Source: an uncultured Alphaproteobacteria bacterium
Lineage (GTDB): Bacteria; Pseudomonadota; Alphaproteobacteria; UBA11222
NCBI GenBank assembly: GCA_947085295.1
Contig: CAMTVX010000044.1
Location: forward strand, 3,269 to 67,268
Length of the DNA stretch: 64,000 nucleotides
Reading direction: 5' to 3'
A model generated the notes under the pieces. The model was not told the DNA's origin. It did not search any database and saw nothing but the letters and a program-made list of their open reading frames with translations. This document shows, one piece after another, positions 2,190 through 21,378 of the stretch. The position numbers were made by a program, and so were the translations under genes. The first letter of the stretch is position 1. Every line of letters begins with the position of its first letter.

Positions 2190-3554
2190 TTAATTTACTG
2201 TCCGCTGTGCCATCAGGGACATGCCACGCAACAGATCCAGCGCATAGCTTAGCTGATAATCAGCAGGTGCTGTTTCACCGGAGACTTTATCTGATTCGGG
2301 ACCGCCTACGGGAGTGTCTTTTGCGGGGGCCTGACCTGGCGCAACAACTGGCGCGTCCTTGCTTGCGGGTTTTTCGTCTGTGGGCTTTTTCACGCCGCCT
2401 TCCAGATGGCTGCGTAAATCCGCTTCGCTGCGCAGACGCTTAGGCTCAACCACTTCGAGTTTTGCCTGTTCAACCTTGATGTCCGGTTCAATGCCGGTTG
2501 CCTGAATGGAACGCCCGGACGGTGTGAAATATTTGGCGGTGGTCATGCGCAAGGCGCCCTTGCCGCTCAGCGGAATGATTGTCTGAACTGATCCCTTGCC
2601 GAAACTTGTCGTGCCCAGCACGATGCCGCGATGATGATCCTGCAATGCACCCGCGACAATTTCTGACGCGCTGGCTGAACCGCCATTGATAATGACGATA
2701 ACGGGCTTGCCTTCGGTCAGATCGCCCTTGGTGGCGCTGTAACGCTGAATGTCATCGGGGTGACGGCCGCGCGTGGAAACAATTTCACCGCGTTCCAGAA
2801 ATGTATCGCTAACCGAAATCGCCTGATCCAAAAGCCCGCCAGGATTGTTACGCAAATCCAGAACCACGCCCTGGAAATTGGCGCCGATCTCTTTTTTCAG
2901 TTTCACAAGGTTTTCCACCACGCCGTCATTGGTATGTTCGTTGAAAGCGGTGATGCGAATATAGACCACATCCTTTTCACGCCTGGCGCGAACCGATTGC
3001 ACGGTGATTACGGCGCGCTTCAGCACAACATCAAATGGTTCCGCCGTGCCTTCACGAACGACAACAAGCTTTATTTCCGTATTTACCGGGCCGCGCATCA
3101 AATCAACGGCCTCTTTCAGGTTCATGCCCATAACCTGCTTGCCATCCAGATGCGTAATATAATCACCGGACTGAATACCGGCCTTGGCGGCGGGGGTATC
3201 GTCTATGGGTGTCACGACCTTGACGACACCATTTTCCATGGTGACTTCGATGCCAAGACCGCCAAATTCACCGCGCGTCTGCACCTGCATATCGCGATAG
3301 GCGTCGGCGTTCAGAAAACTCGAATGCGGGTCCAGTGAGGACAGCATGCCATTGATGGCTGCTTCGACAAGTTCATTGTCCTTGGACTCAACCACATGAT
3401 CGTTGCGCACCCGTTCGAATATATCTCCGAACAGATTAAGCTGTTCATATGTTTCCGCGCTGGCGGCGAATGCCGCACCGGATGGCGTCAACAGGATAGC
3501 CAGCATTGCGCCCGATAGCCATAAGCGCATTTTACCTTTTGATTGCATGAACAT
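2190..3554 (-). CDS. ctpA: S41 C-terminal processing peptidase (PDZ domain)
   Basis: LDPHS, GLGIEV PDZ loop, DLRNNPGGLL, SASASEIVAGALQDH, TSFGKGSVQ motifs. Confidence 0.95.
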   Translation of the reverse strand: MFMQSKGKMRLWLSGAMLAILLTPSGAAFAASAETYEQLNLFGDIFERVRNDHVVESKDNELVEAAINGMLSSLDPHSSFLNADAYRDMQVQTRGEFGGLGIEVTMENGVVKVVTPIDDTPAAKAGIQSGDYITHLDGKQVMGMNLKEAVDLMRGPVNTEIKLVVVREGTAEPFDVVLKRAVITVQSVRARREKDVVYIRITAFNEHTNDGVVENLVKLKKEIGANFQGVVLDLRNNPGGLLDQAISVSDTFLERGEIVSTRGRHPDDIQRYSATKGDLTEGKPVIVIINGGSASASEIVAGALQDHHRGIVLGTTSFGKGSVQTIIPLSGKGALRMTTAKYFTPSGRSIQATGIEPDIKVEQAKLEVVEPKRLRSEADLRSHLEGGVKKPTDEKPASKDAPVVAPGQAPAKDTPVGGPESDKVSGETAPADYQLSYALDLLRGMSLMAQRTVN

Positions 3555-4783
3555 TAGCCACTTACCTTCTTTTCGCTGACTTTCAACCAGGGCATAGGAT
3601 TGAACGGTTTCCCATCCTTGCGGAATTCGACATACAGATCACGCAGATCTGACCCACCATCGGCGCCAGAAAGCGCAGCCTCTTCGCCCTTTGGACCGGT
3701 TCCCATCCGCCCAATCGGCTGTCCTTGTGTCACATTCTGTCCAACGACACCATGCACCAATGACAGCCCCGAGAGTAATATATGGTATCCCTCTCCCGCT
3801 TCCAGGATCAATAATTGACCATAAGCGCGAAATGGTCCTGCAAACACTATTTTTCCATCAAATGGGGCGATCACTTCAGCACTTTCGCGGGTGCGGATGC
3901 TCATACCCCTGCGGGTCGTACCGGAATTATCCCTCGCGCCAAAATTTGCGACAATCTTGCCCCGGGCGGGCATTGTCAGCATACCCATGGCCGCGCTGAA
4001 TAATACAGGGCGCGACGTTTCAGGTGCAGGCGGAGCGGGGGAAAGCAGTGCATATTCCTGCGCTTCCGGCTTTTCTTCGGGGGCGGCTGCCGACGGTAGG
4101 GCCTGCGGTCTGGGGCGCGGCTGTCCGCCGGGTTTTGTTTCTGTATCGGCTGTATTATTCAGCCGGGTCAGCAAATCACCCGCGTCCCTGGCGTTTTTTG
4201 CCAGCGCGGTCATGGCGTCGGCTTTTGCGGCGGCTGCTTCTATAAGTGCCGATTGCTGGCCATTTTGCGCAATCAGCAGGCCGGTCAGCGCCTTTTGCTC
4301 TTCCTGAAGCTCCTCCAGCCGGGATACGTGCAGATCGCGCTCTTCCGTCATGACGGCTTCCAGTTGATCAATTTCGGTCAGGTTTTCGCGCAGAACCGCT
4401 GCTTCCTGATCAACCCCCTTGATTACCGCCCCCAGCAGGGTGGCGCCGCGTACATGCGTGATCGCCGCATCCGTGCGCACCAGCAGCAGCGCAGGCGGTT
4501 GGCGCCCCAGCCTTTGCATGGCCGCCAATATTTGCGACAGATCACCGCGCTGCGCGTCAAACCGGGCCAGTTGGCTGCGCCGCCGCAATTTCAGTTCATC
4601 CAGCCGGCTTTCACTATCCAGAACGTCCTGTTCGCGCGCCTGGATCAGCATGGCGGTCTGCACCAGTTTTGCATTGAGTTCAGGTTCCGTATTTTCAGGT
4701 TCCGATTGCGCCATGACCGATACGCCCCATAACGGACCGCAAAGGGCCGCCGTTAGTGACACTCTGATCAAGAAATTGCGCAA
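3554..4783 (-). CDS. envC: Murein hydrolase activator EnvC family (coiled coil plus M23 domain)
   Basis: Long coiled coil followed by PARGKIVANFG...APFDGKIVFAGPFRAYGQLLILE...LYVEFRKDGKPFNP; upstream of ctpA. TTG start. Confidence 0.85.
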   Translation of the reverse strand: MRNFLIRVSLTAALCGPLWGVSVMAQSEPENTEPELNAKLVQTAMLIQAREQDVLDSESRLDELKLRRRSQLARFDAQRGDLSQILAAMQRLGRQPPALLLVRTDAAITHVRGATLLGAVIKGVDQEAAVLRENLTEIDQLEAVMTEERDLHVSRLEELQEEQKALTGLLIAQNGQQSALIEAAAAKADAMTALAKNARDAGDLLTRLNNTADTETKPGGQPRPRPQALPSAAAPEEKPEAQEYALLSPAPPAPETSRPVLFSAAMGMLTMPARGKIVANFGARDNSGTTRRGMSIRTRESAEVIAPFDGKIVFAGPFRAYGQLLILEAGEGYHILLSGLSLVHGVVGQNVTQGQPIGRMGTGPKGEEAALSGADGGSDLRDLYVEFRKDGKPFNPMPWLKVSEKKVSG

Positions 4784-4876
4784 GAATCAAAACCTGTTTT
4801 GCCGTGAACGATTCACGCGGGATTATCCGTAAAATACTGTCTGCGCCGCAACAAGTCCACCCGCGCAATATATCCG

Positions 4877-7800
4877 CTACACTGCGGGGGATGATTGGCC
4901 AGAATGGTTACCAGACGGTAAATTTGTTCCGCCCGCAGCTTTTGCCGGTCTTAACAGGATGGTCAGGCACAGAATATAGAACATCAGAACAAGGCGCGGC
5001 TGATCGAACGTGCTTACCGTCATCCCCGTTATCAGAAAGCCTGTCAGGGACGCCAGCAGCACCGCCGCAAGCCTGTCTCCCGCTGCAATCTGACGCGCCA
5101 GCGCCGCAAGTGTAAGCGCCAATAAGGCCCCCACCGCCAGCAATCCCAGCCACCCCTGATCGATCAACAGGCCCACGGCCAGATTTTTTGTGTGCCAGAA
5201 CAAATGTGCGTCTGACGTCCAGAACCAGTGATCGGAAAGCCGGTCAAACTCGCCATTCGCAACGAGATTGATTTCATTTTCTTTCGTAATACTGATTGCG
5301 TCGATATCAACGCCATGCAGGGGCGCGTTATTAACCCAAAACGATAATCTGGTTGGGCGGGGAAAAACCAGGCCAGAGACAGACCCGGCATACCCAATTT
5401 CACCGGTCTTTATTATCCCCCTGTAAGTTTGCCACCCCTCCCCATTCTCCTGAACCTGAAATATAGCATAGGTGCAATTATACGAGCTAATCAGCCATTT
5501 ATCACATAATGCAACTGTCAGGGAGGCGTTTGGCTCGGATGTGCGAAGTCTGACGCTCACTTGATAGGTGTTATCCGCATCGATGTGGATTGCCTGCCCC
5601 ATATACTGGGGCAGGCCGGACCACATCCGCATGAAACCATCATCCCCGTCACGGATAAAATCTGTGCGGGATGACCGCAGCTCAATTGTCCTGCTTTCTT
5701 GGCTAAGTCGTGGAAAACTGCCAAGGCCCATGCCTAAAAATTTTGTGGCAAGGGTATCGTCGCGCATGCTCAATGCGGCGCGCCAATGATTATACCGGGT
5801 TTCAGCGTCCGGCATGGTCCCCTCAAATCTTTCTCCCATATAGGTCCGGGAAAGCATGGGCAGGCCCACCATCGAAATCAGAACAACAGCACCTGATCCC
5901 AAAGCGACGGTAATAAATCCACGACGCCAGCCCGGGCGGCTCGCCAACAGCCCCAGCATGCCTACGCCAAAAGCAATCACTACCGCGATGAGGGGGCCGC
6001 GAGAGGCCGTGGCCATCAAAGTGTAGAATGATAGTAGCCCCATGCCTATGGTAACCGGCAATAGCGCCCACCAGCGGCGATCAAGCAATAACATAGCCAG
6101 CAGCGGCATGGTTGTCGCCAGCCATACATCGATGGGACCATCTCCGGTATGCAAGCTGGAAAATGTTGCAGCGATCCGGTGGTCAGAATTCCATTCAAAC
6201 AATCCCGCAAAAATCCAGTGTTCGTACACCCCAACCACGCTGACACCAAAAAGGCCCAGCAAAAGACCCCGCAACAACAGGTGCGTGGCGTCGCTGTCCT
6301 GTGCGATGGCGCGCCTTAGCGGGTTGAACAGCAGCAGCGCCCACACAAACCCCTTGCCGACCCGCAAGCTGTTATAGGGGCTAAAATAGTCAGCAAATGA
6401 ATTGGGCGTTATGGGCGGCGGCGGCCAAAGCTGTAACAGTGTGCTGAGCAGGTATGACACGGCCAGAAGCGTCAAAACCAGTTTCAGGTTTCTCGAAAGC
6501 GGCGGCAGCGGCTCTGCGCCGTTTTCACGCAGCGCAAGAACGCCCGCTGTTAACAGAACAAGGGCGTCAAATTCATCAAAGAAAAACCGGCCTGACCAGG
6601 GCGCAAGATCAAAGACCGGCAACATTGCAGGTACTATAATCAGCCAGAGTCCCGGCCGACGCCACAGGAAAATGGCGTACAGTGTAAAAGCCGCCGCTAT
6701 AGGCAGGCGCAGGACCGGAAAATCCACCACGAACCAGATAGTGATCGCCAGTAAAGACAATACGTAGGGAATCCGCGCGCGCCGCTGCGTCACAAAATGC
6801 ATTGCAGACTGAGCGTTGATTTTAGCGAAAGGCCTGTCTTGCGGCGCAGCTTCTACATTGCTTTCCGGTATTGACAAATCTGAGCCTAGCCGGACCGCCC
6901 ACTCACAGATGCGCTGCGTCAACGTCACCGCCGCGACGGCTATCAGGATATTGGTAAGATCTGGCCGCAGTCCCGTAGTGATGAGGCCCCCTGCTTCTAT
7001 TATGCCTGCAAATATGATTGCCCAAAATGCGCTATATATCAGGGGCCGTCTTTCTCCCGGCGCATTGCCATTAAGTGACTGGATAGCCCAGATGAAAACA
7101 CCCAACGGCGCATAGCTGACAGCAATGCTCATCAGGCTGGAAAAGGCTTCTTGTTCAGTCGTGAAATAATAGTAATAGAAAGGCATCCAGTGCATGGATG
7201 CGAGTACGTCTTCGATTTTGCCTTGCCCCGCGAAACCGGCATGCCACCCCCGCAAAACCGGCAGTATCGCCAGATAGAGTGGCGCAGCAAGCCAGATACC
7301 GGCCTTCAGCCAGGGGGTGAGGCGTAGCATGATCCTGGGTAGCAAATCTGTAATCTGGTGACCAAGCGCTGCGCCAAGCATCGCAACAGCAAAACTGCTG
7401 GCTTCCACGCGCCCCGAATACTGAAGCCATTGCAGCGCTTCGATCCCGCAGGTAAGCGCAAAGGCCGCCAGAACCGCCGAGGAAACACTGCGATTCCAGA
7501 TCAACCTAATCGCCATACCCAGCGGGAGTATGAGCGCAATTTGCAAAATCAGCGACGCCAGGCCGCGGATGCCGAATAAATTCTCCGGCGCCCATACGAA
7601 CGCCTTCGGGTCGGCCAACCGCGTTGCAATTTCATCCGCACTGACCAGAAAATCAAACGGGAACAGCGCAATAAAAATGTACCCCAGCAGATAAAGTCCA
7701 AGCGCTGCGGTTAATGTTTTGGGACCCCCGGACAGGGCATTGCGTATCGCTGTTACAATCTGCCTGCCCCACAACGCCCAGCCAAGGATACCGATACCGG

Positions 7801-9595
7801 TGCCCACAATTTCCGCAACCATATCATTGAGCGAGTAAGTGCGCGGCGCGGCCCAAACCTGTAAAAACTCAATGCAAACCGCCAGACCAATACCAACGAA
7901 CGCTGCGAAGATGGCCCCGCTCAGCCCCAGTCGGCTGGTGGCGCCATAGGCGAAAAATCCGATTGGCACATAAAGAATGAGATTGGCTACCAAATCGGCA
8001 CGGTTACGAAGGCCCAGGCCATACCATTTGAGATAGGAAAAATTCCCGAACATGTAACCAGCCGGCGCATCGCGGTATTCGAAGGGAAGCAGACTGCCAT
8101 ACAGGACAAATATTGCGGACAGACATGCTAGCATGGCCAACGCGCCGTATGGAATCGGCGCTGGCCGCTGCGTCGCAAAATTCATTACTGTGTGCGCGTT
8201 GCGTTTAGTTAAAGGTCTGTCTTGCGGCGCAGCTTCTAGATTGCTATCAGATATTGGACTTTCCAATAATAGCACATCTGGCCCCACCCGGGCCGCCCAC
8301 TCGCAGATGCGCTGCGTCAACGTCACCGCCGCGACGGCTATCAGGATATTAGTAAGGTCTGGCCGCAGTCCCGTAGTGATGAGGCCCCCTGCTTCTATTA
8401 TGCCTGCAAATATGATTGCCAAAAATGCGCTATATATCAGGGGCGGCCTTTCTTCCGGGGCTTTGCCATTAAAGATCCGGATCGCCCATATGAAAATGCC
8501 CAAAGGGGCATAGCTGATGGCAAGACTCAACAAGCTGGAAAAGGCATGTGGTACAGTGATGAAGTAGTAATAGTGGAAAGGCATCCAATGCATGGATGCG
8601 AGCACGTCTTCGATTTTGCTTTGGCCGGCGAAACCGGCATGCCACCCGCGCAAAACAGGCAGTATCGCCAGATAGAGCGGCGCAGCAAGCCAGATACCCG
8701 CTTTCAACCAGGGTGCAAGGCGCAGCATGATCTTCGGTAGCAAATCTGTAATCTGATGACCGAGCGCCGCGCCAAGCATCGCAACAGCAAAACTGCTGGC
8801 TTCAACGCGCCCTGAATACTGAAGCCATTGCAGCGCTTCGATCCCGCTGGTGAGCACAAAGGCCGCCAGGACAGCGGAGGCAACACCACGATTCCAGACA
8901 AGCTTAATCGCCATGCCCAATGGCATCATGAGCGCAATTTTCAAAATTAGGGACGCCAGGCCGTGGATCTCGAATAAATTCTCCGGCACCCATGCGAATG
9001 CATTCGGGTCGGCCAGCCGCATTGCGACCTCATCCGCACTAACCAGAAAATCGAACGGGAACAGCGCAATGAAACTGTAAACCAGCAGGTATAAACCAAG
9101 CCCCGCAGTCAATGTTTTGGGGCCACCGGACAGGGTGTTCTGCACCGCGCTTACGATCAGCCTGCCCCACAGCCCCCAGCCAAGGATACCGGCACCGGCG
9201 CCTATGATGTTTGCAACGATATCATTTAGAGAAGCCGTGCGAGGCGCGGCCCATATCTGCAAAAATTCAATACAGATAGCCAGGCTGGCGCCAAGTAACG
9301 CCGCCAAGATTGCCCCGCCTGACTTCTGGCGGCTCGTAGCGCCAAAGGCGAAAAATCCGATTGGCACATAAAGAATGAGATTGGTTACCCAATCGACTTG
9401 GTTATAATTTTCAGGGTTCGTCCAATTGAGATAGGAGAAATTCCCGAACGTGTACCCCGGCGGCGCATCGCGGTATTCAAAAGGAAGCAGGCTGCCATAT
9501 AGGACAAACAGTGCTGACAGGCATGCCAGCGTGGCAAGTATACCGTATGGAATCGATCGATTCTCTGACACGGCGCCCCCTGGATCAACACGCAT
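4877..9595 (-). CDS. Large polytopic membrane protein: tandemly duplicated VanZ-like region plus O-antigen ligase/Wzy_C-like region with a soluble beta-rich insert
   Basis: VanZ-like motifs (NLILYVPIGF...IEFLQ...SLNDIVAN) occur twice in near-identical ~460-aa units. C-terminal half has ASRGP, RYNHWRAALSM..LGMGLGSFP and HTKNL..LLIDQGWLG, which are O-antigen-ligase-like motifs. Confidence 0.7.
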   Translation of the reverse strand: MRVDPGGAVSENRSIPYGILATLACLSALFVLYGSLLPFEYRDAPPGYTFGNFSYLNWTNPENYNQVDWVTNLILYVPIGFFAFGATSRQKSGGAILAALLGASLAICIEFLQIWAAPRTASLNDIVANIIGAGAGILGWGLWGRLIVSAVQNTLSGGPKTLTAGLGLYLLVYSFIALFPFDFLVSADEVAMRLADPNAFAWVPENLFEIHGLASLILKIALMMPLGMAIKLVWNRGVASAVLAAFVLTSGIEALQWLQYSGRVEASSFAVAMLGAALGHQITDLLPKIMLRLAPWLKAGIWLAAPLYLAILPVLRGWHAGFAGQSKIEDVLASMHWMPFHYYYFITVPHAFSSLLSLAISYAPLGIFIWAIRIFNGKAPEERPPLIYSAFLAIIFAGIIEAGGLITTGLRPDLTNILIAVAAVTLTQRICEWAARVGPDVLLLESPISDSNLEAAPQDRPLTKRNAHTVMNFATQRPAPIPYGALAMLACLSAIFVLYGSLLPFEYRDAPAGYMFGNFSYLKWYGLGLRNRADLVANLILYVPIGFFAYGATSRLGLSGAIFAAFVGIGLAVCIEFLQVWAAPRTYSLNDMVAEIVGTGIGILGWALWGRQIVTAIRNALSGGPKTLTAALGLYLLGYIFIALFPFDFLVSADEIATRLADPKAFVWAPENLFGIRGLASLILQIALILPLGMAIRLIWNRSVSSAVLAAFALTCGIEALQWLQYSGRVEASSFAVAMLGAALGHQITDLLPRIMLRLTPWLKAGIWLAAPLYLAILPVLRGWHAGFAGQGKIEDVLASMHWMPFYYYYFTTEQEAFSSLMSIAVSYAPLGVFIWAIQSLNGNAPGERRPLIYSAFWAIIFAGIIEAGGLITTGLRPDLTNILIAVAAVTLTQRICEWAVRLGSDLSIPESNVEAAPQDRPFAKINAQSAMHFVTQRRARIPYVLSLLAITIWFVVDFPVLRLPIAAAFTLYAIFLWRRPGLWLIIVPAMLPVFDLAPWSGRFFFDEFDALVLLTAGVLALRENGAEPLPPLSRNLKLVLTLLAVSYLLSTLLQLWPPPPITPNSFADYFSPYNSLRVGKGFVWALLLFNPLRRAIAQDSDATHLLLRGLLLGLFGVSVVGVYEHWIFAGLFEWNSDHRIAATFSSLHTGDGPIDVWLATTMPLLAMLLLDRRWWALLPVTIGMGLLSFYTLMATASRGPLIAVVIAFGVGMLGLLASRPGWRRGFITVALGSGAVVLISMVGLPMLSRTYMGERFEGTMPDAETRYNHWRAALSMRDDTLATKFLGMGLGSFPRLSQESRTIELRSSRTDFIRDGDDGFMRMWSGLPQYMGQAIHIDADNTYQVSVRLRTSEPNASLTVALCDKWLISSYNCTYAIFQVQENGEGWQTYRGIIKTGEIGYAGSVSGLVFPRPTRLSFWVNNAPLHGVDIDAISITKENEINLVANGEFDRLSDHWFWTSDAHLFWHTKNLAVGLLIDQGWLGLLAVGALLALTLAALARQIAAGDRLAAVLLASLTGFLITGMTVSTFDQPRLVLMFYILCLTILLRPAKAAGGTNLPSGNHSGQSSPAV
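4888..4933 (-). repeat. Relic copy of the rlmH 3' end (attR-like); 46-bp imperfect direct repeat of 9695-9740
   Basis: GGGATGATTGGCCAGAATGGTTACCAGACGGTAAATTTGTTCCGCC vs GGGATGATTGGCCAGAATGCTTACCGCACGGTAAATTTGTTCCGCC, 43/46 identical. In the rlmH frame it reads AEQIYRLVTILANHP vs AEQIYRAVSILANHP. Confidence 0.93.
6775..9555 (-). repeat. Intragenic tandem duplication, two units of ~1.39 kb (about 6775-8157 and 8158-9555)
   Basis: Anchor CCGTATGGAATCG at 9543 and 8145 (offset 1398); CGTAGGGAATC at 6763 vs CGTATGGAATC at 8146 (offset 1383). Long stretches are nearly identical at DNA level, e.g. 7141-7450 vs 8540-8850. Confidence 0.95.
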
Positions 9596-9679
9596 TCAGA
9601 ACTACCTGTGATTATTGCAAAGGCCGAAAAACAACGAGCTGTAACAATTTACGGGCGCACCAGCCATCATTTATTCGCC

Positions 9680-10180
9680 TCACGCACGATGATAGGGATG
9701 ATTGGCCAGAATGCTTACCGCACGGTAAATTTGTTCCGCCAGCATCATGCGCACCAGCATATGCGGCCAGGTCATTGCCCCCAGCGATAGTTGCATATGC
9801 GCGCGGGCCGTTACCTGATCGCTTAACCCGTCCGCGCCCCCGATGACGAATACAAGATTGCGGCCGCCCTGATCCTTGTGTTGCCCCAGCCATTCTGCGA
9901 ATTTCTCACTGGATAGCGCGCGGCCCCGGCCGTCCAGCGCCACCAGCGTTGCACCTTCCGGCACCTGGGCCAGCAGCAGTTCGCCCTCACGCACCTTGCG
10001 CTGGGTGGCATCGGTCTGGGCGCTGCGCCTGCTGCGGTCTTCGACCTCGCGCAGCACCATCGGGCCAAACCCAAGGCGGGCGCCCATCAATTCTGCATTT
10101 TTCAGATAGCTGTTGGCAGCGGCCGTTTCATCGGCGGCGGCTTTCTGCCCCCGGCCAACAGCCGCAATCGTGATGCGCAT
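9680..10180 (-). CDS. rlmH: 23S rRNA pseudouridine-1915 N3-methyltransferase
   Basis: LDGRGRALSSEKFA, FVIGGADGL, LSLGAMTWPHMLVRMMLAEQIYRA..ILANHPYHR signature; follows rsfS. Confidence 0.95.
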   Translation of the reverse strand: MRITIAAVGRGQKAAADETAAANSYLKNAELMGARLGFGPMVLREVEDRSRRSAQTDATQRKVREGELLLAQVPEGATLVALDGRGRALSSEKFAEWLGQHKDQGGRNLVFVIGGADGLSDQVTARAHMQLSLGAMTWPHMLVRMMLAEQIYRAVSILANHPYHRA

Positions 10181-15836: not shown

Positions 15837-15864
15837 ACTATAGCCGTTGCGGATTTTAAGTCAA
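15837..15864 (-). promoter_or_regulatory. Putative sigma70 promoter of rplU-rpmA
   Basis: Minus strand TTGACT-16 nt-TATAGT followed by a GC-rich discriminator (CCGCGCCA), typical of stringently controlled promoters. Confidence 0.65.
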
Positions 15865-15987
15865 GCAGGGAACGCAAGATTAACGCTAACAGTCCTGACC
15901 ACCCGCCCATGCGCGATAGTTAGATACATATACGCATTTTGCGCGATATTATCTTGCATAAGATCAACCCGTCTTTCGGAGAATGGC

Positions 15988-16932
15988 GTGCCCGACCGAG
16001 CCATCCTGCCCCTCGCCGCCGATGATGCGGCCCCGCATTATGCGGATTGGCTGGCGCATCTGGCGCATGCGCGGCGGCTGAGTGCGCATACGGTAGCGGC
16101 TTATGGCCGGGATGTGCGGGATTTTTTTGGGTTTTTGCAGGCGCATCTGGGGGGGCAGGCCGGCCTTGCGGAATTGCGCGCCCTGCAAATTTCGGATTTC
16201 CGGGCCTGGCTGGCGCATCGGCGCGGTGATGGGCTGAACTCCGCGTCGCTGGCGCGGGCGATTTCGGCGTTGCGCAATTTTTTCCGTTTTCTGCACAAAA
16301 CCGGGGTGCTGGAAAATACCGCTATTGGCGGCCTGCGCGGCCCGAAAATTCCGCACGGCGTGCCCAAACCGCTGAGCGCACCGCAGGCACTGCGCACGGT
16401 TGCGGATGCGGGCGATCTGGCGGGGGAACCCTGGATCGGCCTGCGCGATGTGGCGGTGTTGAGCTTGCTGTATGGCTGCGGTTTGCGGGTGTCGGAGGCG
16501 CTGGGCCTGAACCGCAGCGCCGCGCCATTTGGCGATACGCTGCGCATTCTGGGCAAGGGCGGCAAGGAACGCATGGCCCCCGTGCTGCCAGTGGTGGCGC
16601 AGGCGGTGCAGGATTATCTGGCGCACTGCCCGTATAAACTGACTGCCAGCGATCCGCTGTTCGTCGGCGCGCGCGGCAAGCGGTTAAGCCCGCGCATTGT
16701 GCAGTTGGGCATGCAGCGGATGCGCGGCGCGCTGGGTCTGCCCGACAGCGCCACGCCGCATGCGCTACGTCACAGCTTCGCCACCCATCTGCTGTCGGCG
16801 GGCGGTGATCTGCGCACCATTCAGGAATTGCTGGGCCATGCCAGCCTGACCAGCACCCAACGCTACACCGAAGTAGACGCGGCGCGGCTGCTGGAAGTGT
16901 ATGGCGCCGCCCATCCCCGCGCGCGGGGATGA
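15988..16932 (+). CDS. xerC: Tyrosine recombinase XerC
   Basis: N-terminal SAM-like domain (LSAHTVAAYGRD) and complete catalytic set: LLYGCGLRVSE, GKGGKER, PHALRHSFATHLL, QELLGH, TQRY. GTG start after GGAG. Confidence 0.88.
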   Translation: MPDRAILPLAADDAAPHYADWLAHLAHARRLSAHTVAAYGRDVRDFFGFLQAHLGGQAGLAELRALQISDFRAWLAHRRGDGLNSASLARAISALRNFFRFLHKTGVLENTAIGGLRGPKIPHGVPKPLSAPQALRTVADAGDLAGEPWIGLRDVAVLSLLYGCGLRVSEALGLNRSAAPFGDTLRILGKGGKERMAPVLPVVAQAVQDYLAHCPYKLTASDPLFVGARGKRLSPRIVQLGMQRMRGALGLPDSATPHALRHSFATHLLSAGGDLRTIQELLGHASLTSTQRYTEVDAARLLEVYGAAHPRARG

Positions 16933-20649: not shown

Positions 20650-20701
20650 TCAGCGCTGACAGCCGGGGCAGTATGAGATGAAATTCATCCAATTGCAGAA
20701 T
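20650..20701 (-). repeat. Relic copy of the mutM 3' end (attR-like), counterpart of 21379-21429
   Basis: Minus strand TTC ATC TCA TAC TGC CCC GGC TGT CAG CGC TGA = [10 protein letters not shown] vs mut[11 protein letters not shown]. 21/31 nt identical over 20650-20680 vs 21379-21409, plus ATTGCAGAAT (20692) vs ATTGCACAAT (21420) at 9/10. Confidence 0.8.
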
Positions 20702-21086
20702 CACGGATCACATTTTCCCGCAAAAAACCAATCAACCCCGTTTCATCCAATGTGCCCGCTGCAAGGTTCAGTATTGCCTGTGCGGCGTTTTCTTCGCTGG
20801 CGGTAAAGCGCAAGCCGTTCAGTTCCAAAAACAAAACGCCCACCACAAAGCCGGTGCGTTTATTGCCATCGACAAAGGGGTGATTGCGCACAATGCCCGC
20901 AATATAGGCGGCGGCCAGATCAATCCTGTCGGCGGTTTCAGCGTAAGCAAATATCTGCTGTGGCCGGGCGAGTGCGGATTTCAGCAATCCCCCATCGCGC
21001 AATCCCACCGCGCCGCCAAACACTGCGAGCAGCCGGTCATGCAACGCCAGCGCGTCGCATTCCTCAATCCAGACCGGCGCGCTCAT
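20685..21086 (-). CDS. Death-on-curing (Doc/Fic) toxin
   Basis: G.RDGGLLKSALARP, HPFVDGNKRTG Doc motif. Confidence 0.92.
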   Translation of the reverse strand: MSAPVWIEECDALALHDRLLAVFGGAVGLRDGGLLKSALARPQQIFAYAETADRIDLAAAYIAGIVRNHPFVDGNKRTGFVVGVLFLELNGLRFTASEENAAQAILNLAAGTLDETGLIGFLRENVIRDSAIG

Positions 21087-21310
21087 TTGGCCAGGGTATG
21101 CAGCGTGTTGCGATAGCGATCAATAATGTCTTCGGCCTTTGCCATTTTCTGCTCGAACGCCGGATCATAGGGGGTCAGCCGGTAGGTTCCATCCGCCGCC
21201 TCGATCAGGAACAGCGGCGCACCGTCTTTGGTGTGCAGCCGGTTGATAACTTCCCTGGGCAGCACGACGCCCAGCGAGTTGCCGAATTTGCGAACCTTGA
21301 GCTCAATCAT
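21083..21310 (-). CDS. AbrB/MazE-family antitoxin
   Basis: LKVRKFGNSLGVVLPREVI swapped-hairpin signature; ATGA overlap with doc. Confidence 0.9.
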   Translation of the reverse strand: MIELKVRKFGNSLGVVLPREVINRLHTKDGAPLFLIEAADGTYRLTPYDPAFEQKMAKAEDIIDRYRNTLHTLAK

Positions 21311-21325
21311 GACGCCTCTCCCATT

Positions 21326-21349
21326 ACGTTATCACCAATGTAATAACAT
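21326..21349. promoter_or_regulatory. Palindromic operator upstream of the antitoxin (autoregulation)
   Basis: ACGTTATCAC-CAAT-GTAATAACAT, 8 of 10 arm positions complementary, directly upstream of the AbrB RBS. Confidence 0.55.
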
Positions 21350-21378
21350 TCGGGGTGGAATGCAAGAGAAACTGGCCC

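Follow-up and report, generated by a model that had tools for sequence, protein, structure and literature searches.

Insertion at rlmH has been reported, in the literature that we searched, only for the staphylococcal cassette chromosome (SCC) elements of Staphylococcaceae. These elements, SCCmec among them, enter the 3′ end of the gene (orfX), keep it intact, and come to lie between direct repeats. Elements that have no integrase of their own are known from other settings: the CIMEs described for ICESt1/ICESt3 of Streptococcus thermophilus are integrase-less, cis-mobilisable remnants flanked by attachment (att) sites. Replacement-type flexible islands and glycan loci, such as the O-antigen and capsule loci, lie between conserved flanking genes. 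We analyzed a 64,000-nucleotide (nt) stretch of DNA from an uncultured alphaproteobacterium (contig CAMTVX010000044.1; here, the window, whose numbering our coordinates follow), in which one large gene separates rlmH from an envC homologue, all three on the minus strand, and is flanked by two copies of the rlmH 3′ end. Here, we will refer to this gene as the cargo gene. Comparison with related loci leads us to conclude that the rlmH insert is an old, apparently immobile scar and not an active SCC-like element.

We compared fifteen related loci, gathered by scanning genome contigs with the large protein, by scanning metagenome contigs with RlmH, and through homologue look-ups. Eight are occupied (the window, L001, L012, L002, L003, L007, L008, and L009) and share the order rsfS-rlmH-large gene-envC-ctpA. 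In four others (L010, L011, L013, and L014) the site is empty and rlmH directly adjoins envC; a distant relative, L015, is also empty. Because both genes are adjacent in these four relatives, the rlmH-envC order is interrupted in the window, as had been proposed in an earlier reading of the window made from its letters alone (the sequence-only reading). The same reading placed an insertion with an att-like tail duplication at the rlmH 3′ end, and the existence of empty sites in relatives bears this out.

Alignment with the empty sites distinguishes the two copies. Colinear with the native end of rlmH, the downstream copy continues unbroken into the native rlmH-envC spacer: with the sequence that follows, it aligns with the tail and spacer of the empty sites, CATCGTAGCGGATATATTGCGCAGGTGGACTTG corresponding to CATCGTATTTAATACATTGCGCAGATGGACTTG of the empty locus L011, and where it reads ...AATCATCCCCCGCATCGTAGCGGATATATTGCGCAGGTGGACTTGTTGCGG..., L011 reads ...AATCATCCCTATCATCGTATTTAATACATTGCGCAGATGGACTTGTTGCGG.... 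Because of this unbroken run into the native spacer, we take the downstream copy to be the displaced native rlmH tail, here called the relic. The upstream copy is the one in use. Its final GCG TGA and the next 84 nt (GAATAAATGATGGCTGG...) are present in every occupied locus and have no counterpart at the empty sites. The alignments show that the insert evidently supplied its own rlmH tail, the last ~62-74 nt with the TGA stop, and displaced the native one.

The left junction is identical in all eight occupied loci, with the stop codon followed by GAATAAA.GATGGCTGG..., and the relic is likewise common to them. Beyond the stop, the sequence is homologous in the window, L001, L002, L003, L008, L009, and L012, and also in L007, which has an extra insertion of ~200 nt. 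Since all eight loci have identical junctions, the insertion appears to have arisen a single time.

The duplication itself is well supported. A repeat search of the window identified a direct repeat between 4888-4937 and 9695-9744 that spans 50 nt at 92% identity (46/50 nt). The 46-bp duplication that had been pointed out from the letters recurs with 3 mismatches and is matched in 0 of 100 dinucleotide-preserving shuffles; as had also been noted, the relic is still readable in the rlmH frame, where it translates as AEQIYRLVTILANHP. The local alignment of relic and working rlmH 3′ end in the window scores 80, against a shuffle maximum of 28. Across the loci, the duplicated segment starts 62-74 nt ahead of the last base of the final codon, ~25 codons upstream of the rlmH stop, and runs to approximately that codon (alignment scores 67-84; shuffle maxima 25-28); homology reaches farthest, to 74 nt, in L007.

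Two larger interpretations of the repeat were considered. A relic of ~100 nt in L001 and L007 had no significance, with 1913 and 1455 of 2000 shuffles scoring equally well, and because this extension failed the shuffle test, we no longer consider that a complete second rlmH was once present and decayed afterwards. That the 84-nt leader derives from the rlmH tail as well, as its third and decayed copy, is unproven: the match is only 12-13 nt long (ATGATGGCTGGCG) and is equaled by 27 to 585 of 2000 shuffles. A protein-level scan for further relics at the ends of all window genes returned only the rlmH relic; a second relic, at mutM (see below), is too short and too frameshifted to register in such a scan.

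It is exceedingly improbable that the repeat arose by chance or that the locus is a product of metagenome assembly, an artefact that the sequence-only reading had itself allowed for. The window, like its relatives, apparently comes from a metagenome assembly, and the Logan contigs that cover the region are short and mix strains. Nonetheless, these independent contigs cross both insert junctions without differences, the same architecture occurs in seven other independent assemblies from other samples, and the relic aligns with real empty sites. The parts of the locus are listed in Table 1.

Table 1. Parts of the rlmH locus in window numbering. Coordinates of the beta-sandwich are positions in the L001 model shifted by +466 amino acids (aa).
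Feature	Position	Strand	Description and basis
rlmH	9680-10180	(-)	Intact, 166 aa; translation and Pfam SPOUT_MTase match, 155.7 bits, positions 1-154 of 154
rlmH tail, working copy of the duplicated segment	9695-9744; ~9683-9756 by comparison with relatives	(-)	Repeat search, alignment
Spacer, leader of the cargo gene	9596-9679	(-)	84 nt; homologous in all occupied loci
Cargo gene	4877-9595	(-)	1572 aa; two VanZ-type modules, WaaL/Wzy_C-like membrane domain with CBM-like beta-sandwich, three C-terminal helices
VanZ module 1	8198-9595	(-)	aa 1-466; first half of the L002 allele type, 90% aa identity
VanZ module 2	6800-8197	(-)	aa 467-932; first half of the L003/L008/L009 allele type, 83%
Predicted periplasmic beta-sandwich, CBM4/CBM16-like	5213-5665	(-)	AlphaFold 2 (AF2) model of the L001 orthologue, strands 845-995
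Relic, displaced native rlmH 3′ end	4872-4937	(-)	AEQIYRLVTILANHP recognizable, then a decayed YHR-stop tail
Native rlmH-envC spacer	4784-4871	(-)	Conserved in occupied and empty loci
envC-like M23 peptidase gene	3554-4783	(-)	Native downstream neighbor of rlmH

According to the sequence-only reading, the cargo gene has no terminus of its own. For the window this is accurate: the last 17 codons and the stop of its open reading frame (ORF) fall inside the relic, in a frame other than that of rlmH, and the relic now provides the gene's tail and stop codon. The claim does not hold for the insert as it was first formed. The cargo of L001 and L012 ends ...LRPANPVRENV with its stop 22 nt short of the relic, and that of L007 ends ...RRMTADG with its stop in the relic's first bases. 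In the window, L002, L003, L008, and L009, 30-45 nt are missing, and the ORF enters the relic for 17 codons, giving the tail AGGT.L.GNHSGQSSPA. before the stop. Because two lineages (L001/L012 and L007) still end the cargo before or at the relic's edge, the run-on tail is secondary; by this comparison it evidently reflects a later deletion of those 30-45 nt in one sub-clade and not an original property of the insert. These two lineages are also the homologues ending ahead of the GGTNLP tail that the sequence-only reading had suggested looking for. The finding that would have spoken against it, the same tail at unrelated loci, did not appear: homologues there share the last helix and then continue into unrelated hydrophilic tails, and none ends in the GGTNLP tail.

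The insertion is also old. A tree built from the DNA of the flanking genes rsfS, rlmH (without its tail), envC, and ctpA, and rooted on L013 and L014, splits the ingroup into L007, L001/L012, and the empty L011 on one side and the window, L009, L003, L008, L002, and the empty L010 on the other. Occupied loci fall on both sides of the ingroup root, and their monophyly is rejected (p-AU 1.5e-80, approximately unbiased test). Identity at four-fold sites of the flanking genes is 0.50-0.57 between occupied lineages. Because this identity is low and occupied loci lie on both sides of the root, the insert appears to be ancient, predating a deep split in the clade, and at least two lineages today evidently have empty alleles. 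The suspicion that the insert is richer in AT holds only marginally, with a GC content of 54.4% in the cargo gene versus 56.8% in the window. A foreign base composition is unsupported: the GC content at third codon positions (59.8%) lies within the range of envC, ctpA, and yibQ, and codon usage is not an outlier.

An old insertion might still move. One possibility is that the insert is an integrase-less cassette of the CIME or SCC kind, which a recombinase encoded elsewhere excises and re-integrates at the rlmH tail. Such a cassette would account for near-identical genomes that differ in the presence of the cargo, above all for L010, which lacks the insert even though all four of its flanking genes (rsfS, rlmH, envC, and ctpA) are 96-98% identical to those of the occupied loci L008 and L002. 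The direct repeats of the target tail around a compact cargo would fit as well, and so would the synonymous-site identity of the last ~30 codons of rlmH, which reaches 0.76-0.86 versus ~0.5-0.6 elsewhere in the gene across seven diverged lineages, occupied and empty, as is the case at many attachment sites. L010 itself argues otherwise. Its tail (YHRG-stop) and 41-nt spacer were found in no sampled locus, and among its nearest relatives the relic tails have already decayed (CCCCCGCATCGTAG). Because this tail and spacer are absent from the occupied haplotypes, with their decayed relic tails, L010 is not an excision product; it appears to have received or kept a different empty allele through homologous recombination. 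For the present pattern of presence and absence, too, replacement of alleles by homologous recombination seems a better explanation than excision.

Other observations make a mobilisable cassette very unlikely. All occupied loci have one set of junctions, and the stop codon of the cargo gene lies in the relic, such that excision would truncate or alter the gene. No joint skipping 4934-9740 was detected in Logan contigs from four metagenome runs, although such contigs drop rare variants. The insert contains no recombinase; its single ORF matches only VanZ and Wzy_C, and the repeat search of the window revealed no terminal inverted repeats at the two ends of the insert. The only recombinase of the window is a XerC-like tyrosine recombinase at 15847-16932 (+), which scores 311 bits against TIGR02224 (cut-off 335), adjoins rplU/rpmA, and occupies the same place in relatives (L021 8074-9024). 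It is probably a housekeeping enzyme. No cargo homologue was present in 72,556 plasmid records, and the left junction was absent from viral contigs.

Taken together, these data are probably best explained by the fossil of a single ancient single-crossover integration, in which a unit of tail, leader, and gene entered rlmH, and not by an active element. The compared loci show the sequence of steps. In the common ancestor of this uncultured alphaproteobacterial clade, DNA entered rlmH ~62-74 nt before its stop, carrying a corresponding rlmH end with its own stop codon, the 84-nt leader, and one complete gene. The incoming tail now completes rlmH, and the native tail, still joined to the native spacer, was pushed beyond the cargo to become the relic. 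From the layout, we infer that a circular DNA integrated by one crossover in the shared segment (Campbell type), through RecA or through a site-specific recombinase that either acted in trans or was later lost. Subsequently, the 30-45-nt deletion in the window's sub-clade fused the ORF to the relic. The cargo settled in as a hypervariable gene, most likely for glycan handling, and homologous recombination exchanges its alleles, the empty ones among them; the window allele gained a second VanZ module by unequal recombination.

Several points weigh against this account. No circular intermediate, donor, or recombinase was found, and the crossover mechanism is read from the layout. The cargo abuts both repeats, at distances of 84 nt and 0-22 nt, a state that an integrase island could have reached by decay only if its deletions had been very tidy. 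At their origin, the copies differed hardly at all, which a duplication of host sequence fits as well as a copy borne by an element. Finally, the relic is conserved far above neutral expectation (95% between the window and L007, versus 57% at four-fold sites), and a plain fossil does not explain this.

Some of these points direct attention to the host. Template switching or staggered-break fill-in during host replication or repair could have made the target duplication with neither a recombinase nor a circle. The gene would then possibly have been copied from the genome's own exopolysaccharide (EPS) locus, and only insertions that duplicate the tail, thereby keeping rlmH intact, would survive. 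This scenario agrees with the difference of ~1-2 nt between the copies at origin (GTAAGC in working copies, GTAACC in relics and most empty sites), with two tight junctions that leave no room for an element backbone, and with an insert that has no recombinase.

It also agrees with a second insert of the same build, located 11 kb away in the window. There, a pair encoding an AbrB/MazE-type antitoxin and a Doc toxin is inserted at the mutM 3′ end (20650-21378, (-)). In the empty relatives L023 (3740-3880) and L024 (3740-3870), mutM is directly followed by an enoyl-CoA hydratase (ECH) gene. The native mutM tail (...YCPGCQR-stop) has been displaced and is still joined to the native mutM-ECH spacer, and the resulting relic (...TACTGCCCCGGCTGTCAGCGCTGAAAGTTTCGTGCTATA...) aligns with the native tail and spacer of L023 and L024. 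The working tail TGCGCCACCTGTCAGCGATAG (...FCATCQR-stop, with TAG as the stop) arrived with the AbrB-Doc insert, together with a leader of ~64 nt, and the Doc ORF has its stop at the relic. Because two compact, recombinase-less inserts of one build lie within 64 kb, mechanisms that require no integrase in cis gain weight; the mutM case does not identify which mechanism was at work.

Despite this agreement, we regard an origin through host repair as rather unlikely. Bacterial break repair is not known to give target duplications of 30-74 nt. The working GCG TGA differs from every native tail seen (GGC TAG, GCT TAG, ATT TAA, and CGT TAG), and an imported tail fits at least as well. A further insertion in the neighborhood, between nadD and rsfS in L007 (1385-3145) and L002 (3100-4779), has no flanking duplication; it consists of a 401-403-aa AAA_15/AAA_21 ATPase and a 154-183-aa protein, a defence-like pair, and is absent from the window. 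The single-crossover integration therefore remains our preferred account of the rlmH locus.

The high conservation of the relic has a parallel in the rlmH tail, whose excess synonymous conservation is not seen in the distant L015. Within 9683-9780, AT-ending codons are kept (CAA ATT TAC ... GTA ... AAT CAT ... TAT CAT), and L015 uses GC-ending codons. The relic of L001 has its changes concentrated in the stretch bounded by TTTACC and GCCAATCATCCC, both of which are intact. A nucleotide-level signal that lies in the duplicated segment and was copied along with it is possible. RNA structure was detected neither in the relic nor in the working tail (Z-scores -0.04 to -0.84), Rfam has no match in the window, and a consensus scan of both junctions, the 84-nt leader included, yielded no promoter or terminator.

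Conceivably, the duplicated tail is no passive scar but a working, portable part of recombinase-free cassettes, each made of the last 30-75 nt of a conserved host gene, a short leader, and cargo. The tail would repair the target gene and carry a nucleotide-level signal (for example, a promoter), of which the duplication would leave one copy to the cargo and one to the downstream gene. With the relic, it would also provide a homology handle by which lineages could exchange the cassette, gaining or losing it. This idea is compatible with the synonymous conservation of the rlmH tail, with that of the relic, and with the second cassette at mutM. We consider it an unlikely extension of the data.

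The spacers around the insert have features of their own. In all related loci, the rlmH-envC spacer (4784-4871) is conserved far above neutral expectation and contains TGGACT-17 nt-TATTTT along with two CcrM-type sites (GANTC), a short way ahead of the envC start codon, TTG; by its sequence, it is a candidate cell-cycle-regulated envC promoter. Within its positions 4186-4480, L007 has an 18-nt tandem duplication at the rlmH stop (GCGCGTGAGGGGAATAAA twice), and the extra ~200 nt in its leader include a CGTCATTGCGAGGAGCGTAGCGACGCGGCAATCC-type repeat and are possibly a miniature element. The spacer from relic to envC is ~170 nt longer in L001 and L012 than in other loci (L001 9372-9638), and the empty site of L013 has a ~205-nt spacer with short inverted repeats. 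The rlmH-envC intergenic slot has taken small insertions repeatedly.

We next consider what the insert encodes. The cargo protein matches Pfam VanZ (PF04892) in four stretches with 123.3 bits, against a gathering threshold of 30.1, and falls just below the cut-off for Wzy_C (PF04932; 30.8 versus 31.7 bits), a domain for which its orthologues carry precomputed matches. Its relatives have a single VanZ-type module and 1092-1107 aa. The L001 orthologue was modeled with AF2 from 50 homologues (pLDDT 84.8, pTM 0.71). In the model, an all-helical membrane N-terminal half leads into a further helical domain in the membrane; residues 845-995 form a beta-sandwich, and three helices make up the C-terminal end. 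The best Foldseek matches are CBM4 1gui, WaaL 7tpg_B (target-normalized TM 0.58, E 0.011), and CBM16 2zez, all with weak E values (at least 0.009). A phmmer search against PDB sequences gave no match, and neither did NCBIfam.

Outside the clade, the nearest proteins are 47-61% identical and come from two separate genes with a 4-nt overlap, one for a VanZ protein of 443 aa and one for a Wzy_C protein of ~630 aa. Such pairs adjoin genes for EpsH/EpsI exosortase, an AsnB-type amidotransferase, a polysaccharide deacetylase, an AAA ATPase, and glycosyltransferases. Fused homologues, ~33% identical, are common in Betaproteobacteria, and one that we examined sits in an EPS locus. Since the split pairs belong to exosortase (EpsH/EpsI) EPS loci, the cargo most likely acts on a surface glycan; from this and from the model, we infer a glycan ligase or polymerase with a sugar-binding-like periplasmic domain. 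The cargo gene of the window stands outside any EPS locus, between rlmH and envC. A literature search linking VanZ, exosortase, and O-antigen ligase returned nothing.

The cargo gene is far more variable than its surroundings. L002 and L008 are 96-100% identical in the flanks, and where their cargo genes diverge most, identity drops to 54-76% nt. It is lowest, 54-66% nt, over the beta-sandwich, and no other part of the gene varies as much between relatives. The encoded proteins are 76% identical overall and 69% identical in the C-terminal part. The pattern is mosaic, with L002 agreeing with L003 at places where it differs from L008. The comparison shows a hypervariable, mosaic locus, swapped between lineages by homologous recombination in its conserved flanks.

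The window allele carries the mosaic further, with two VanZ modules that are 71-84% identical to each other and meet at a shared IPY motif near 8197, a junction spanned without differences by Logan contigs from three runs. This degree of identity and the different allele types of the modules rule out a fresh duplication. By comparison with the other alleles, the second module evidently came from unequal recombination between two divergent alleles. A contig of run X1 joins 8159 to 9565 (depth 6.6, a 30-nt side, 7 other letters) and possibly represents a co-occurring single-module strain in the same sample.

Elsewhere in the neighborhood of mutM, L023 encodes a PEP-CTERM-domain protein (5687-6442), which suggests that the clade has an exosortase system. 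Relatives (L021 400-1094 and 6208-6953) have other toxin-antitoxin pairs, FitA/PIN after ECH and MNT/HEPN; the corresponding slots of the window are filled with different cargo.

The rlmH locus offers a worked example, complete with empty sites, of how a single gene can join a housekeeping operon without breaking it. The displaced tail of one gene has been reused, out of frame, as the new C terminus and stop codon of the incoming gene. The outcome is a one-gene hypervariable glycan locus in a clade whose sequences occur in groundwater, soil, and aquaculture metagenomes. Its sugar-binding-like domain falls to ~54% nt identity between genomes that are otherwise ~98% identical, the pattern expected for a surface trait under pressure from phages or grazers. 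With a second insert of the same build at mutM, compact, recombinase-less, tail-led cassettes may be a way in which this clade regularly gains genes.

How the locus compares with the described systems can now be stated. In the parallel with SCC that the sequence-only reading drew, the target gene, insertion at its 3′ end, its preservation, and the flanking direct repeats are shared, and, as that reading remarked, there is no ccr-like recombinase. Of the features by which SCC is defined, the target gene is the only one in common. SCC has ccrAB or ccrC serine recombinases, and the rlmH insert has no recombinase of any type. SCC has terminal inverted repeats next to its direct repeats, and the ends of this insert have none. 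The SCC site is short, ~15 nt at the stop, whereas here the duplicated segment measures 62-74 nt. Unlike SCC, the insert carries a single gene and is ancient and, to all appearances, fixed, with no excision visible in the Logan contigs. The locus is thus no SCC of an alphaproteobacterium: its rlmH received one insertion in the distant past, and there is no sign that the insert moves today.

In layout, the locus resembles CIMEs: two copies of a gene's 3′ end enclose the cargo, the gene is completed by the copy on the element side, the native end is displaced, and there is no integrase. In contrast to CIMEs, no related integrase-bearing element is known for the rlmH-tail site here, the cargo abuts both repeats and leaves no spare DNA for arm-type sites, and mobilisation in trans is unlikely given the decayed relic. 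In content, the cargo resembles the VanZ and O-antigen-ligase-like pair of exosortase (EpsH/EpsI, PEP-CTERM) loci, to which it is 47-61% identical over its full length and which occurs as a fused form in betaproteobacterial EPS loci. It differs from that pair in that the genes are fused here, the VanZ part is doubled in the window, and the gene stands alone. In its population behavior, the locus is like hypervariable glycan loci, with 96-100% identical flanks around divergent mosaic alleles, presence/absence polymorphism, and homologous recombination in the flanks. Unlike them, it consists of a single gene, set within the housekeeping operon nadD-rsfS-rlmH-envC-ctpA and marked by an insertion scar.

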